Assembly: GCA_041665885.1 (NCBI GenBank)
Contig: JBAYHY010000004.1
Span: 1-50,343 of the forward strand
Reading direction: 5' to 3'
Length of the DNA stretch: 50,343 nucleotides
DNA from: Minisyncoccota bacterium
GTDB taxonomy: Bacteria; Patescibacteriota; Minisyncoccia; Phycocordibacterales; UBA9973
Part shown: positions 4,332 to 50,175 of the stretch, piece after piece
Numbering within the stretch: the stretch's first letter is position 1
Layout of the letters: each line of letters starts with the position of its first letter
Notes under the pieces: model-generated
Told to the model about the DNA's origin: nothing
Databases searched by the model: none
The model's input: only the letters and a program-made list of their open reading frames with translations
Position numbers and translations under genes: made by a program

Positions 4332-4373
4332 ACCATTAGATCTGCCTGCGCAGGCAGGCGATCTCCCAAAATT
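4332..4373 (-). repeat. Duplicated 5' end of tRNA-Gln (24 nt) interrupted by an 18-nt palindromic insert
   Basis: accattaga + cgatctcccaaaatt match 4299-4322 exactly; insert tctgcctgcgcaggcagg at 4341-4358. Confidence 0.85.
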
Positions 4374-4424: not shown

Positions 4425-6119
4425 CTATTTTTTCTTATTAATACAAGCTTTAATAAAAGACGTGAAAAGTGGATGTGGGCGAAGCGGGTGCGCTAAAAAT
4501 TCGGGATGAAATTGAGAACCTAAAAAGAATGGGTGTTTGTTTTTCGGCAATTCCGCTACTTCCATCAAATGCCCATCCGGTGAACGTCCAGAAAAGACTA
4601 AACCCTTGGCCTCAAGATCCCCGATAAATGACGGATTCACTTCATAGCGATGACGGTGCCTTTCAATAATTTCCCCGCCTGCTCCCGAACCACCGTGAGG
4701 GCGGGCAGGTTTTTTCCCATAATAAGCATCATAGGCAACCGTACCTTTTCGCAACATGGCCTTGTAGGCTCCCAGGCGCATCGATCCGCCATATAGATTT
4801 TTCTTCAAGAGTTCCTTTTGAGATTCCATCACATCAATGACTAAATACTTTGAATTCGGGTTTACTTCCCTCGTATTTGCGCCCTTCAGGCCCAAAACAT
4901 TTCTGGCATATTCTATCACCATCATCTGCATCCCGTAGCAAAGGCCGAGATATGGGATTTTGTTTTCTCGGGCAAATTTTACCGAGCTCAAAATTCCTTC
5001 CACTCCCCGCGCCCCGAAGCCTCCCGGCACCACGATGCCATCGTATTTTTTTAATTCTTTTAACTTTGCTGGATTTTTTTCAAAATCGGTGGAATTCAAC
5101 CAGGTTAAAATCGGTTTTCTGTTTTGCGCATAGCTGGAATATTTTATCGCCTCGATGACGGATAAATATGAATCGGACAAAATAAAGTCCCCGGTTTCAA
5201 AATATTTTCCTATCATGGCTATCTTCACCACCTCTTTACCGTTGTGCGCATGGTGCGCAAATTTTTTCCAGGCATTCCAGGATGCAATGTCGGGTTTCTT
5301 GCAAACAATTCCCAAAATACTGCAAAGCTTTTCGGACAATTTTTCTTTTTCAAAATTAATCGGTATATCATAAATACTACTGACGTCCGGCGCAGAAACC
5401 ACTCTATCCGCGGGCATATTACAGAAAAGCGAAAGTTTCTCTTTTCTTTTTTCGTCAAGATCATGTTCCCCCCTGGCTATCAAAATATCAGGCTGAATGC
5501 CGGAAGCATTCAAGGTGCGAACTGCATATTGGGTCGGTTTGGTTTTCATTTCTCCGATTTTTCCCGGTGTCGGCAGATAGGAAACCATCACAAAAGCGAC
5601 GTTTTTCGGATTTTCAATCTTCATCATACGGGCTGCCTCCAAAAACAAAATATTTTGATATTCTCCGATGGTTCCACCTATTTCGATAATGACGATATCC
5701 GCCTTGGCCACTTCCCCTGCTTTTTTGATACGTCCGATAACTTCGAGCGGGATATGCGGGACGACTTCCACACACTTACCTTTGTATTCCAAATTCCTTT
5801 CTTTTTCGATAACCGTCTTATATACTCGCCCGGTCGTCATGTAATTTATCCGCGTCAGATTGAGGTCCAAAAATCTTTCATAATTCCCCATGTCTTGATC
5901 CGTTTCATCTCCATCGGAAAGCACAAAAACTTCTCCGTGTTCGGTCGGATTCATCGTCCCGGCATCCACATTGATATATGGATCAACTTTAATCGCGGTT
6001 ACATTCAGTCCGCGATTTTTTAAAATAAGCCCCAAAGATGAAACGGTGACCCCCTTTCCCACCCCAGAAATAACACCCCCCACCACGAAAATATATTTTA
6101 TTTCTTTTTTTTCCGGCAT
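4425..6119 (-). CDS. pyrG: CTP synthase, with a 12-aa in-frame palindromic insert
   Basis: GGVISGVGKG, KVDPYINVDAGTMNP, GGTIG, GGFG, GLCYGMQ, ERHRHRYEVN, QFHPEF. Confidence 0.98.
   Translation of the reverse strand: MPEKKEIKYIFVVGGVISGVGKGVTVSSLGLILKNRGLNVTAIKVDPYINVDAGTMNPTEHGEVFVLSDGDETDQDMGNYERFLDLNLTRINYMTTGRVYKTVIEKERNLEYKGKCVEVVPHIPLEVIGRIKKAGEVAKADIVIIEIGGTIGEYQNILFLEAARMMKIENPKNVAFVMVSYLPTPGKIGEMKTKPTQYAVRTLNASGIQPDILIARGEHDLDEKRKEKLSLFCNMPADRVVSAPDVSSIYDIPINFEKEKLSEKLCSILGIVCKKPDIASWNAWKKFAHHAHNGKEVVKIAMIGKYFETGDFILSDSYLSVIEAIKYSSYAQNRKPILTWLNSTDFEKNPAKLKELKKYDGIVVPGGFGARGVEGILSSVKFARENKIPYLGLCYGMQMMVIEYARNVLGLKGANTREVNPNSKYLVIDVMESQKELLKKNLYGGSMRLGAYKAMLRKGTVAYDAYYGKKPARPHGGSGAGGEIIERHRHRYEVNPSFIGDLEAKGLVFSGRSPDGHLMEVAELPKNKHPFFLGSQFHPEFLAHPLRPHPLFTSFIKACINKKK
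4674..4709. mobile_element. 36-bp palindromic element inserted in frame in pyrG (encodes PARPHGGSGAGG)
   Basis: Arms cccgcctgc...gcgggcagg identical to those at 41210-41248; interrupts the usual YG..IxERHRHRY segment. Confidence 0.75.
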
Positions 6120-6130
6120 TTTTTTGTTTT

Positions 6131-7054
6131 TTACTTATTCAAATATTTTCTGATTGCCAGAAAACTGGAGAGAACTCCCAAAATCACTCCTGATAATAAA
6201 AGAATTATGAAAATCTGCGCAAAGCTGGAAATAAAATAATCATATAAATTTATCCCGAGAAAATCAGTCATTTTACTGCCGAACCAAGCCGTTATCGGAA
6301 AAAAGAGCACCACAGTAATGATCGTAGCAATAGCACCATAGATAGCCCCTTCTACCATAAAAGGACCTCGAACATGCATTTTTGAAGCTCCGACGAGACG
6401 CATAACCCCTATTTCCTCTTTAGAAATAAAAATAGCCAAACGAATAGTATTGAAGGTAACAACCACTGAGATAAACATTAAAATCAGAGTTACCAAGAAA
6501 CCGAGTGTCTGTGCACCAGAAATTATTGTATTCAATTTATCGATTATTAATTTATTTTGGTGATAATTGACCTTATCGATAATGGATGTTTCCCCGGGCG
6601 CGAGAATATTGTCTGACTTCATGAAATTCGCTATGCTCTCATACTGAGATACTTCTTTCGCTTTGACATTCAAATAGGCCCCGAGCGGATTCTCTCCTAT
6701 TTCATCTAGGGCTTGAATCGTCGGATAATCATTCTGGTGACGATCTCGGAAAAGCTGAAGCGCCTCATCTCGGCTAGTATAAGTGACTTGCGCCACTTCC
6801 GGTAATTTCTCCAGAGAAGATTTTAAATCCAAAATCTTGGTCTCGGTCGCCCCAGTAGTAAAATAAATAGTCACGTCTACTTTATCTTTTATCTGATCAA
6901 GAGAAAAATACAAAACGGCCTGCAGGAGAATGATAAGAGTAATGACCGAAAGAGTAATCGTGACGACGAGCACTGCCGCCCAAGAGACCACTCCTCCCCT
7001 TTTGAAATTCAGGAATCCATTTCTCATTATTCTTTTTAACGCAGTCATGGCCAT
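6131..7054 (-). CDS. ftsX: Cell division permease FtsX
   Basis: TM, extracellular domain, three C-terminal TMs, EIGVMRLVGAS motif; follows ftsE; start likely 7054 or 7048. Confidence 0.92.
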   Translation of the reverse strand: MAMTALKRIMRNGFLNFKRGGVVSWAAVLVVTITLSVITLIILLQAVLYFSLDQIKDKVDVTIYFTTGATETKILDLKSSLEKLPEVAQVTYTSRDEALQLFRDRHQNDYPTIQALDEIGENPLGAYLNVKAKEVSQYESIANFMKSDNILAPGETSIIDKVNYHQNKLIIDKLNTIISGAQTLGFLVTLILMFISVVVTFNTIRLAIFISKEEIGVMRLVGASKMHVRGPFMVEGAIYGAIATIITVVLFFPITAWFGSKMTDFLGINLYDYFISSFAQIFIILLLSGVILGVLSSFLAIRKYLNK

Positions 7055-7067
7055 AAAAAATTTTTGC

Positions 7068-7736
7068 TTATTTATTGTGTTTAGTATCTCTAATAATTTT
7101 ACCATTTTCCATGGTAATTACCCTCTTGCCCAGAGAATCAATCACTCCTTTATTATGAGTAGTTAGGATGACCGTCGTACCGAGGTCGTTTATTTTTCTT
7201 AATATTTGGACAATTTCGTGTGTATTCACCGGATCCAAAGTCCCCGTGGGTTCATCGGCGATGATGAGCTCGGGCTGATTTATGATGGCTCGAGCTATCG
7301 CCAGGCGTTGCTGTTCACCTCCGGACATTTGATTCGGAAAATGTCCGACCCGGTGACTTAAATCAACCAACTCTAAAACATGCGGAACATCGCTGGCGAT
7401 TTCTTCTTCTGTCTTGCCGACAGCTTCCATCGCGAAAGCAATATTTTCATAAGCGGTTTTGTTCGAAAGTAATTTGTAATCCTGAAATACAATTCCGATG
7501 CGACGACGAAGCATTGTTAAGTCGTTATTTTTCGCTTTATTCACGTTGATAGACTCAAAAAAAACCGTTCCCTCAGAGGGATTTTCCTCGGCTAAAATCA
7601 TTTTAGTGAGCGTGGTCTTACCCGCACCCGAGTGTCCGACGATAGAAACGAATTCACCCCCTTCGACGGTAAAAGTCACATCTTCGAGGGCGACCGTGTC
7701 TTTGTAAATTTTTGAAACATTGTTGAAATAAATCAT
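7068..7736 (-). CDS. ftsE: Cell division ATP-binding protein FtsE
   Basis: GHSGAGKTT Walker A, IGIVFQDYKLL, MSGGEQQR, IIADEPTG. Confidence 0.95.
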   Translation of the reverse strand: MIYFNNVSKIYKDTVALEDVTFTVEGGEFVSIVGHSGAGKTTLTKMILAEENPSEGTVFFESINVNKAKNNDLTMLRRRIGIVFQDYKLLSNKTAYENIAFAMEAVGKTEEEIASDVPHVLELVDLSHRVGHFPNQMSGGEQQRLAIARAIINQPELIIADEPTGTLDPVNTHEIVQILRKINDLGTTVILTTHNKGVIDSLGKRVITMENGKIIRDTKHNK

Positions 7737-40608: not shown

Positions 40609-41163
40609 TTAATTAAATTTAACTTCCACCGGATTTTGAGCAACGTCATTGTCGGCAAGATCAAAGAACTCCATTTTAGCGAAATTAAACATCTTGGCGA
40701 TTATGTTGCCAGGAAAACTTTCAATCGCGGTATTCAGGTCACGAACATTCGCATTATAAAATCTGCGAGCTGCCTGGATCTTGTTTTCCGTATCGGAAAG
40801 TTCTCCTTGTAATGCTAGGAAATTTTGATTCGCCTTTAATTCCGGATACGCCTCGGCGATAGCAAACACTGACTTCAGCGCGCCGGTTAACATATTCTCC
40901 GCTCCGGCCTTATCTGCTAAATTACCCCCTGCGCCCATGGCCGCCGAGCGGGCTTTGGTAACATTTTCAAAAGCAGAACTCTCGTGCGTAGCATAACCCT
41001 TTACTGTGTTTACCAAATTCGGGATGAGGTCATATCTTCTTTTTAATTGAACTTCAATATCCGCCCAAGCCTCTTTGGTACGATTACGACGAGTGACAAA
41101 ACTATTAAAAGCAAAAATTACTAATAAAATTAGAACCCCTAAAACAATTAAAGCATACATCAT
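40609..41163 (-). CDS. lemA: LemA family protein
   Basis: AWADIEVQLKRRYDLIPNLV, AEAYPELKAN, ARRFYN, FPGNIIA. Confidence 0.96.
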   Translation of the reverse strand: MMYALIVLGVLILLVIFAFNSFVTRRNRTKEAWADIEVQLKRRYDLIPNLVNTVKGYATHESSAFENVTKARSAAMGAGGNLADKAGAENMLTGALKSVFAIAEAYPELKANQNFLALQGELSDTENKIQAARRFYNANVRDLNTAIESFPGNIIAKMFNFAKMEFFDLADNDVAQNPVEVKFN

Positions 41164-41209
41164 AATACTGATGATTATATCACAAAAATATCAAAGATAA
41201 AATCTATTT

Positions 41210-41248
41210 CCCGCCTGCAAAAGCTATGCTTTAGCCATTGCGGGCAGG
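41210..41248. mobile_element. 39-bp palindromic element forming the secF C-terminus and stop
   Basis: cccgcctgc-aaaagctatgctttagccatt-gcgggcagg; arms identical to the pyrG insert. Confidence 0.75.
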
Positions 41249-42145
41249 TTTCTTTTGGTGTTCCTGCACGAGAACCAGGAGTGGCGAAGCAAGGAAAATT
41301 GAAGAATATGTTCCAAAAAACATTCCGGCAGTAAGCATAAGGGCAAAATATCTTGTAGAAACTGGCCCAAAGAAGAAAAGCGCCAAAAGTACGAGAATGA
41401 CAGTCATGGAAGTAGAGATGGAGCGTACGAAGGACTGCTCCAGACTCTTCCCCACTATTTCACCGAAATCTATTTTGGACACATTCGCTTGATTCCTTAA
41501 ATTCTCACGAATTCTGTCGAAAATAACGATGGTATCTGAAACAGAAAGCCCCAGAATAGTAAGTACTGCCACCACGAAGAGAGTATCTACCTCCGCTCCA
41601 AAATAGTGAGACAAAATGACAAACAGACCGACAGGGATAGCGACGTCGTGCAGAAGGGTGACAATTGCGATAATCCCATACTTCCAAGAAGAAACCGGTT
41701 TAGAAACTTTGCGAAAAGCAAAAGCAATAAATAAAATAATCGCCAAAGAAACTAAAATGATTGCTAGAATGGCCTTTCTGGCAAGTTCCGCTCCCACCGT
41801 TGGGCCGACAGAAGTAAAGCTCATTTCAGTAAGCGCGTCTTTATTGTCCCCGGAAAGAGTTGTCAAAAGCAGGGCATGCTCTCTGTCACTTAGGTCACGA
41901 GTCTTCACAATATAACCCAAGTCCCCCGTAGGCTGAAGAAGAATAGATCCCAAATTAAGGACTTCGAGAGATTTTTCTATTGTTGCCTGGGCTGGACGCT
42001 CAGTGGTGTAAACAACCTCGGTAAGCGCCCCTCCCTTAAAATCAATACCGAAATTCAATCCGAAAACAAATAAGGAAATAAAAGAGAGAACCACCAAGGC
42101 TATCGATATACTAATAAATATTTTTTTGTGTTTGATTATAAACAT
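41231..42145 (-). CDS. secF: Protein translocase subunit SecF
   Basis: GIDFKGG, VGPTVGAEL, TLLHDV, SVSDTIVIFDRIRE, GTYSSIFLASP. Confidence 0.96.
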   Translation of the reverse strand: MFIIKHKKIFISISIALVVLSFISLFVFGLNFGIDFKGGALTEVVYTTERPAQATIEKSLEVLNLGSILLQPTGDLGYIVKTRDLSDREHALLLTTLSGDNKDALTEMSFTSVGPTVGAELARKAILAIILVSLAIILFIAFAFRKVSKPVSSWKYGIIAIVTLLHDVAIPVGLFVILSHYFGAEVDTLFVVAVLTILGLSVSDTIVIFDRIRENLRNQANVSKIDFGEIVGKSLEQSFVRSISTSMTVILVLLALFFFGPVSTRYFALMLTAGMFFGTYSSIFLASPLLVLVQEHQKKPARNG

Positions 42146-50000: not shown

Positions 50001-50175
50001 GAAAACTTGATTACAAAATTCTTCACAAAGAATTTTTAAAAAACGTGTACCTCCCTGCTAAAGCAGGCCCAGTCCTTTTGACTCCGAGGGCGCAGTTTTA
50101 AGAAAATTCTTTGCGAAGAATAATATTTTAATTGTCCCTGTCGCTCGCGAGCGACAGGGTGTGGTTTACAAATTT

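Follow-up and report, generated by a model that had tools for sequence, protein, structure and literature searches.

A small, probably mobile hairpin repeat inserted at the 3' end of secF in a patescibacterial genome

The window, by which the whole analysed stretch of 50,343 nucleotides is meant (contig JBAYHY010000004.1 of the Minisyncoccota assembly GCA_041665885.1), carries on its minus strand the gene secF (41231-42145; 304 aa), followed by a lemA-like gene with its ATG at 41163. The last codons of secF lie within a GC-rich hairpin element of 39 nt (41210-41248, read on the minus strand from 41248 to 41210), which has the layout CCTGCCCGC-N21-GCAGGCGGG and the sequence CCTGCCCGC AATGGCTAAAGCATAGCTTTT GCAGGCGGG; it represents a stop-bearing sub-type, here termed B. 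Its 5' terminal 9-mer CCTGCCCGC (41240-41248, minus strand) forms the codons Pro-Ala-Arg and is the same in the copies in pyrG and gyrA described below, whereas the 3' terminal 9-mer GCAGGCGGG (41210-41218, minus strand), which encodes Ala-Gly-Gly in open copies, is untranslated at secF. The coding strand reads ...CAC CAA AAG AAA CCT GCC CGC AAT GGC TAA, then AGCATAGCTTTTGCAGGCGGG AAA TAG ATTTT...; the element gives secF its last five codons and, as its own sixth codon, the present stop TAA (41231-41233, minus strand), as the preliminary description had pointed out. The protein accordingly ends in ...QEHQKK-PARNG, while translation of the entire element in frame 0 gives PARNG-stop-SIAFAGG. The AAA TAG that follows (41204-41209, minus strand) represents the Lys codon and stop with which secF ended ancestrally and with which it ends in the nearest relatives; it is still in frame 39 nt downstream of its former position and is no longer read.

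The element had been described as palindromic, and it does fold: the secF copy reaches -22.4 kcal/mol versus -11.9 +/- 2.4 for shuffled sequences (z = -4.3; 0 of 200 shuffles as good). The palindrome is imperfect, however: CCTGCC at one end and GGCGGG at the other pair with a single G.T wobble, beyond which C stands opposite A as a mismatch. The fold of the pyrG copy by itself is not significant (z = -0.9). A strand-specific hairpin, in which the sense strand alone would fold via the G.U pair, was considered and dropped, since a single wobble and a single C.A mismatch are found on either strand.

Homologues of secF were located in 40 of 41 genomes of the genus. The element is absent from all 29 SecF genes of the genus that were compared and from 79 of 80 further SecF genes of a species-level genome collection, and none of these roughly 110 relatives has the PARNG end, with or without a palindrome. 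In the closest relatives (L186, L187 and L188; 82-85% identity) SecF ends in LVLVQE(W/R)QKKK; removal of the 39 nt from the window gene yields ...LVLVQEHQKKK, matching this empty-allele ending, and AAA TAG is followed in the nearest relatives by the same downstream sequence as in the window. Alignment of the DNA of four close relatives displays a single clean 39-nt gap exactly at the element, on either side of which the sequences remain collinear (...AAGAAA ^ AAATAG ATTTT..., the caret marking the point of insertion) through a TGTGATATAAT box to the ATG of the next gene. At the junction, AAG AAA ^ element ^ AAA TAG, no flanking base has been duplicated or lost. The alignments thus establish the 39 nt as an insertion rather than as ancestral sequence, in agreement with the preliminary description, which had regarded the gene as altered by an element. 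The opposite reading, that the PARNG end is ancestral, that the similarity of the window copies is due to chance, or that the assembly is at fault, has in its favour solely that the window genome is metagenome-assembled; the clean gap in the relatives, the absence of matches in a control search and the same element at the same secF site in an independent assembly (L210, see below) leave it practically no room.

The insertion left both the old AAA TAG and the promoter region of the lemA-like gene intact. The extended -10-like box TGTGATATAAT (41174-41184, minus strand), approximately 10 nt ahead of the ATG, is untouched and collinear with the same box in L186 and L188; it presumably serves the lemA-like gene as a -10-like promoter element, and a simple two-hexamer promoter scan did not call it. 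Since the length of the element is divisible by three, the old AAA TAG stayed in frame, and since the inserted sub-type has an in-frame TAA as its sixth codon, the C-terminus changed from a Lys followed by the stop to PARNG followed by the stop. One Lys is hereby exchanged for Pro-Ala-Arg-Asn-Gly in the short tail past the last SecF membrane helix, a tail that varies freely in length and sequence among relatives; no effect of the insert on SecF is expected. Longer SecF tails, encoded by GC-richer DNA, are found in the relatives L036/L204 (…QKSAQGGSVSGGKNNHE, stop) and L033/L198 (…QKSRSVSRGKK, stop), and these may represent other small inserts at the same permissive tail.

The second copy in the window resides in pyrG, the gene of CTP synthase (4425-6119, minus strand). 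It belongs to an open, 36-nt sub-type termed P (4674-4709, minus strand; CCTGCCCGC CCTCACGGTGGTTCGGGA GCAGGCGGG, that is CCTGCCCGC-N18-GCAGGCGGG), lies in frame and reads KK-PARPHGGSGAGG-E. The likeness of the two copies noted in the preliminary description is confirmed: the copies agree in both 9-nt ends, are each preceded by an A-run and read KK-PAR, and they share orientation and frame at a distance of 36.5 kb. Because their interiors differ (21 versus 18 nt), the copies represent two sub-families of one family. The pyrG insert is missing in 28 of 29 relatives at ...AYG KK ^ E(I/V)xERHRHRYE; it is shared with one genome, G062, where it occurs in a diverged form of 33 nt with one arm mismatch. 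As G062 is without the secF copy, the pyrG copy is the older of the two.

A third copy is located in gyrA on contig C12, again in frame, reading EK-PARPHDSSGAGG-G. At the corresponding site, ...K(S/D)xxK ^ GAFLTMS, no extra residues are present at the insertion point in 26 of 29 relatives; L094 and L110 carry short unrelated extra residues, and L095 has extra residues a few positions upstream. Compared with the relatives, the pyrG and gyrA copies are seamless 36-nt additions, and target duplications are lacking at all three solved sites (secF, pyrG and gyrA). A MITE of the DDE type, with terminal inverted repeats of 15-30 bp and a target-site duplication, was excluded on account of these three sites with empty alleles and without duplication, and of a size below 70-300 bp. 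A different 36-nt palindrome, CCTGCC(T/C)CCTGCCAG(T/C)GCAGGCGGGGCGCAG(G/A)CAGG, reading (G)LPPASAGGAQ(A/T)G, is present in G062, at the exact site of the window's gyrA element (L093) and again in pyrG, seven codons ahead of the PAR element (L078); the same loop positions thus seem to be used repeatedly.

Searches with a pattern of the two ends found three exact matches in the 643-kb window genome (the copies in secF, pyrG and gyrA); an intergenic site (C6:7980-8017) holds a fourth, degenerate copy. Of 61 relatives, 22 carry the pattern, with more than 100 occurrences in all; the family was detected in 66 of 401 genomes and 55 of 223 genera of an order-level sample and in 37 of 301 genomes and 33 of 247 genera of a phylum-level sample, with up to 36 copies in one genome. 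The reversed pattern, used as a control, gave 0 matches in every genome searched. Because of the many copies in relatives and the empty control, the family is, on these counts, real rather than a chance repeat, and spread across Patescibacteria; the single family proposed in the preliminary description thus extends well beyond the two genes of the window. Copies are 24-63 nt long, mostly 36 or 39. The ends CCTGCCCGC and GCAGGCGGG are present in all copies retrieved, the start CCTGCCCGC being identical in every copy that the two-end pattern retrieves, and they are conserved across the phylum sample. The interiors define sub-families: AATGCTTCGCATAGCGAT (36 nt in total), AATGCTTTCAGCATAGCTGAT (39 nt), CCTCACGATGGTTCGGGA (36 nt, the pyrG/gyrA type), CCGAAGCCTCGGC (30 nt), CCATTGGCTGAAGCCGCAGGCGATG (42 nt) and further ones, whose interiors are quite different yet all self-complementary. 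Pairing in the proposed stem of the 39-nt class extends to 94% of cells, versus 34-46% when the 3' partners are slid, and compensatory changes at two stem positions amount to 12 cells versus 4.2 +/- 1.7 after shuffling. Tandem in-frame dimers of the 39-nt element and copies nested in the loop of another copy (L181 among the examples) also occur (G346:C16:6743-6820, G332:C52:19188-19239 and G286:C9:31734-31796).

The conservation of the ends across the phylum could also be read as that of a recognition motif (for DNA uptake, for instance, or for the binding of a protein) built up by mutation and biased recombination in the manner of USS or DUS. CPR bacteria carry uptake genes of the ComEC type, ComEC is present in the window genome, and USS-like motifs show reading-frame preferences in coding regions. 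This reading is nevertheless highly improbable: at the three solved sites the motif is 36-39 nt of extra DNA compared with orthologues and not a converted stretch, nested and tandem copies exist (G332, G286 and G346), and the interior is variable but palindromic.

Further small palindromes populate the same genome (G000). An 18-nt perfect palindrome, CCTGCCTGCGCAGGCAGG, forms a second, related family with the same arms, CCTGCC/GGCAGG; it is represented in the window by TCTGCCTGCGCAGGCAGG (4341-4358, no strand assigned) and elsewhere at C5:493, C5:7977, C2:23208, C2:85994, C9:619, C9:17090 and C12:19424. Within long ORFs it reads (G)LPAQAG in frame, for instance in ComEC (C9:17090), in a 403-aa ORF (C9:619) and in a 223-aa ORF (C12:19424). 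A 24-nt palindrome family, CCC(C/T)GTCGCTCGCGAGCGAC(G/A)GGG, has four copies (window 50136-50159; C1:74295, C13:16505 and C13:16553), one of them in frame in a 317-aa ORF, and two identical 27-nt palindromes, GGCCGGCCTGCAACACGCAGGCCGGCC, lie 292 nt apart (C1:17057-17083 and C1:17349-17375). Two GC-rich, partly palindromic stretches, read in frame as LSPPSQKLGGASRQK in an fpg/mutM-like gene (C2:11955-11996) and as DLLASGENEANPPKAG in a murE-like gene (C14:3212-3256), both genes of conserved enzymes, probably belong to related families as degenerate or composite copies.

Gene context was assessed for 98 distinct copies with flanks from about 20 genomes, copies within ORFs of at least 150 aa being counted as genic; copies in orthologous genes of related genomes (L014/L031, perhaps L016/L122) are not independent, so some of the counts that follow are inflated and the p-values optimistic. 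Such ORFs harbour 71 of the 98 copies (72%). Among these 71, 58 are in sense frame 0 (PAR...AGG), 8 in sense frame 2 (LPA...QAG) and 5 antisense, and the length is divisible by three in 70; the same is true of 80 of the 86 listed genus copies (93%). Over the 86 listed copies, the three sense frames are interrupted by stops in 10, 33 and 56 copies and the antisense frames in 3, 20 and 31; read by eye, the most frequent 36-nt consensus copy has stops in only one of its six frames. Copies that would disrupt frame 0, by a stop or a length not divisible by three, are never gene-internal (0 of 12), compared with 62 of 86 non-disruptive copies (Fisher p = 1.5e-6); three of the 12 lie in the last codons of a gene and nine are intergenic or in short ORFs. 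Intergenic copies between co-directional genes show an orientation ratio of 6:5.

The preliminary description had taken the shared orientation and frame as a sign of targeted insertion. This argument is not supported, since intergenic copies are oriented 6:5, disruptive copies are never internal, and one frame is used though others are stop-free; the simplest reading of these counts is that frame and orientation reflect selection after insertion and not targeting. The 3n lengths and the distribution of stops also suggest that the inserts are translated in the PAR...AGG frame; open copies would then yield peptides of the PARNASHSDAGG type joined to the host protein, and SecF would end in ...QEHQKKPARNG. 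That the insertion machinery itself sets orientation and frame, coupled to transcription, translation or the replication strand, is rather improbable. The predominance of sense frame 0 (58 of 71 genic copies), even though 83 of 86 copies have no stop in antisense frame 0, and the strong A^RAA preference at codon boundaries would fit such a coupling, but the balanced intergenic orientation and the copies in sense frame 2 (8) and antisense (5) within long ORFs do not, and the lack of disruptive copies in gene interiors is a signature of selection. The rarity of antisense copies can be explained by selection as well, the antisense frame-0 peptide PACIAMRSIAGR being hydrophobic and containing Cys.

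What does stand of the targeting claim is a preference for certain sites, from which a target consensus, A^RAA, could be derived. Among frame-0 genic copies the preceding base is A in 66% and the next two bases are R-A in 72%. The combination A^RA flanks 50% of them versus 10.9% of the codon boundaries of the same ORFs (4.6-fold, p ~1e-13); among all other copies, that is in other frames, antisense or intergenic, it is found in 20% versus 7.3% (2.7-fold, p = 0.008), and ^RAA in 25% versus 7.7%. The preference is real at the DNA level; it is not strict, the base at -1 being A in only 47-66% of copies. The K/E-rich flanks could in part stem from tolerant surface loops instead of targeting.

The same preference is apparent at the ends of genes. 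Exactly one codon ahead of the stop lie six copies (window secF, L210, L016, L122, L127 and L139), bounded on the right by AAA TAA/TAG in five cases and by AGG TAA in one. L210 (DASZPN010000037; 70.6% SecF identity; GC-richer flanks) is itself a secF gene and contains a 38-nt B element at the junction AAC AAG ^ AAA TAA, the protein ending in ...GNK-PARNAKA. In a tree of 110 SecF sequences, L210 and the window gene fall into different well-supported clades, and 0 of 200 bootstrap trees allow a single origin of the two copies, which indicates two independent insertions of the same sub-type at one codon boundary of secF. The B consensus, AATG(G)CT(T)AAAGCATAGCTTTT, includes the window secF copy; other B members sit intergenic or at gene ends, for instance in L127 (...KNK-PARNAKA, stop) and L139 (...AKK-PARNA, stop). 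The preference for A^RAA, the copies just ahead of stop codons and the double hit in secF are thus the part of the targeting claim that holds.

The position of the B copies raises the question of whether the secF element has been co-opted as RNA structure, as a 3' stem-loop stabilising the secDF transcript or as a partial terminator insulating the lemA-like gene, a role that an origin by insertion would not preclude. On the mRNA strand the element forms a stable hairpin (-22.4 kcal/mol, z = -4.3), and it is situated right at the end of the secDF unit, ahead of the -10-like box of the next gene; B-type copies recur at gene ends and between genes, and REPs are mostly downstream of ORFs, with GTAG REPs often supplying the stop codon (PMC3733652). 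The hairpin is followed, however, by AAATAGATTTTATC rather than by a U-tract, and a terminator scan calls nothing. Sister copies lie in the middle of pyrG and of gyrA, where a terminator would be lethal, some 110 relatives do without the element, and it has no match in Rfam; in the stretch as a whole, Rfam 15 gave only a sub-threshold chance match, bxd_4, at another place. Such a role is therefore unlikely.

Taken together, the 39 nt in secF are very probably an inserted copy of a small, non-autonomous, REP-like hairpin repeat, whose distribution is shaped by the A^RAA preference and by selection. The element entered secF in an A-rich stretch, between its last two codons (AAG AAA ^ AAA TAG), in an insertion step that would be blind to orientation and favour A^RAA sites. 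Selection would then purge every copy that breaks a protein: inside genes, the survivors would be sense copies of 3n length without stops, adding a PAR...AGG loop, while stop-bearing or non-3n copies would persist solely between genes or in last codons, as in secF. The short, Lys-rich cytoplasmic tail of SecF would be both a preferred target and a harmless place, and for this reason another lineage may have gained the same sub-type at the same spot. A further step, held with considerably less confidence, is that the family is mobile DNA adapted to intragenic life, its 3n length, the stop-free Pro-Ala-Arg...Ala-Gly-Gly frame and the A^RAA target being intrinsic and not merely those of survivors. 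An A^RAA target would match the Lys/Glu codons of surface loops and Lys-rich C-termini, and machinery working without duplication would place the same element at the same codon boundary across lineages, as in secF.

How the inserted hairpin repeat is moved can be put forward only tentatively: it may be mobilised in trans as a single-stranded hairpin by an HUH/Y1 enzyme (RAYT- or IS200-like) or by another enzyme that leaves no duplication. Enzymes acting on hairpins in this way would fit the seamless insertion, the conserved and slightly asymmetric ends, the conserved hairpin, the nested and tandem copies and the A^RAA preference. A Pfam search for Y1_Tnp found Y1_Tnp/RAYT-like genes in 17 of the 20 genomes tested, up to 11 per genome. 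Across these 20 genomes copy number does not track Y1 genes: they are abundant in copy-free genomes, and none was found in G032 (10 copies) or G013 (6 copies). Hairpins of the CCTGCCCGC family were not present at the four Y1 loci inspected. The only Y1/RAYT-like gene of the window genome (C6:6057-6716; 219 aa, HUH motif HFH) scores 37 bits against the model of REP-associated tyrosine transposases NF047646, below the cut-off of 80. Three copies of a perfect 20-nt palindrome, GCGTTAGGTCTTGCCTAACG, surround it (C6:6043-6062, 6742-6761 and 7339-7358), and the genome holds no others; gene and palindromes make up a separate REPtron-like unit. A link of the family to RAYT or IS200 genes was consequently rejected, given the lack of a copy-number correlation, the RAYT-like gene's own palindrome and the hairpin-free Y1 loci. 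The degenerate B-type copy at C6:7980-8017 lies 1.3 kb from the RAYT-like gene, a proximity that was set aside as a post hoc coincidence (chance roughly estimated at ~2%).

In six genomes of the genus a gene with a Y1_Tnp domain adjoins gyrA (G007:C1:86322, G026:C1:5581, G008:C1:14089, G003:C13:10098, G017:C2:56826 and G006:C15:243934), at 190-210 bp from the gyrA match in five and ~1.2 kb in G006; the window genome has no such neighbour. As it stands beside gyrA in all six, this gene looks like a syntenic, vertically inherited one rather than a mobile transposase. Viral contigs gave at least 118 matches to the two-end pattern, of which ~100 are expected by chance (a rough estimate from 18 fixed bases and a variable gap), and most of these matches were dismissed as chance in GC-rich DNA. 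A few IMG/VR contigs (48-54% GC) have 3-5 clear members CCTGCCCGCAATGCTTCGCAACGCGAGGCAGGCGGG, often flanked on both sides by TCTGTGTCC, as if within a longer repeat unit (L281/L301 in IMGVR_UViG_3300022846_000081, L282/L343, L292/L323, L314 and L336).

Among known systems, those nearest to the family are the palindromic elements of Rickettsia and intragenic REPs. The rickettsial elements are ~100-150 bp long and confined to that genus. Both they and the present family are selfish palindromes that sit in frame in housekeeping genes, within a genome that has undergone reduction; they have a preferred frame and are tolerated as extra loops that leave the genes functional. In-frame insertion is seen here in pyrG, gyrA and secF, and one preferred frame in 58 of 71 genic copies. 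The patescibacterial family is 3-4 times shorter (24-63 nt), and it is by this length that it is set apart; it also differs in spanning a phylum of free-living or epibiotic ultra-small bacteria and in having a stop-bearing sub-type confined to gene ends. The rickettsial elements comprise RPE-1 to RPE-10 (Ogata et al. 2000, 2002, as cited in PMC3733652 and PMC10969869). Di Nocera et al. (2013, PMC3733652) report REPs that lie within ORFs, as well as GTAG REPs from which the gene upstream takes its stop codon. With REPs the family shares the form of a short, GC-rich, multi-copy imperfect palindrome, a hairpin of 20-40 nt with G.T pairs. Its copies have no GTAG or CGTC tag, however, but the ends CCTGCCCGC and GCAGGCGGG; long ORFs contain 72% of them, and a 3n length is found in 93% of those of the genus, whereas REPs are mainly extragenic. 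Unlike in a REPtron, no cognate RAYT gene flanks or co-occurs with the family copies.

IS200/IS605 elements resemble the family in inserting without target duplication beside a short sequence and in relying on hairpins whose imperfections are conserved, and the genomes of the family-bearing group often contain Y1/HUH genes. They have, however, two distinct subterminal hairpins and a strict 5' target word of 4-5 nt, as opposed to a single hairpin, a statistical A^RAA preference and no orientation bias (6:5). In AT-rich mitochondria, mobile GC clusters (as in yeast var1) are short GC-rich palindromes that sometimes lie in frame in protein genes. Like the family, they spread in an AT-rich, compact genome, but this genome is that of an organelle and not of a bacterium, and the sequences are unrelated; to our knowledge, neither a 3n rule nor a shared peptide frame has been described for them. 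Double-hairpin and palindromic repeats of mitochondrial genomes (PMC4524435, PMC7218506), MITEs of Coxiella burnetii (PMC5896051) and small mobile sequences of the RU/ERIC type in enterobacterial genes (PMC2759123) served as further comparisons. The latter two groups are also small, non-autonomous repeats that occasionally extend or alter proteins, but they measure 70-300 bp, have terminal inverted repeats, generate target duplications and are mostly intergenic. A description of the CCTGCCCGC...GCAGGCGGG family for CPR/Patescibacteria was not found in the literature searched.

Intragenic selfish DNA has so far been described mainly from Rickettsia, with scattered intragenic REPs in addition. 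The family would represent the same phenomenon in a much smaller form, of 12-13 codons, and phylum-wide in ultra-small bacteria. Its signatures are clean (the 3n rule, one preferred frame, stop-bearing copies at gene ends, seamless insertion and repeated hits at codon boundaries) and make it a countable case of mobile DNA remodelling essential proteins in minimal genomes. In annotation, the inserts may be mistaken for lineage-specific loops or altered C-termini, and in marker genes such as gyrA, pyrG and secF they can mislead alignments and phylogenies. A defined search problem also arises, that of an enzyme moving a 36-nt hairpin without target duplication. If the family is indeed intrinsically adapted to life inside genes, it would quite generally supply proteins throughout Patescibacteria with new loops and C-termini.
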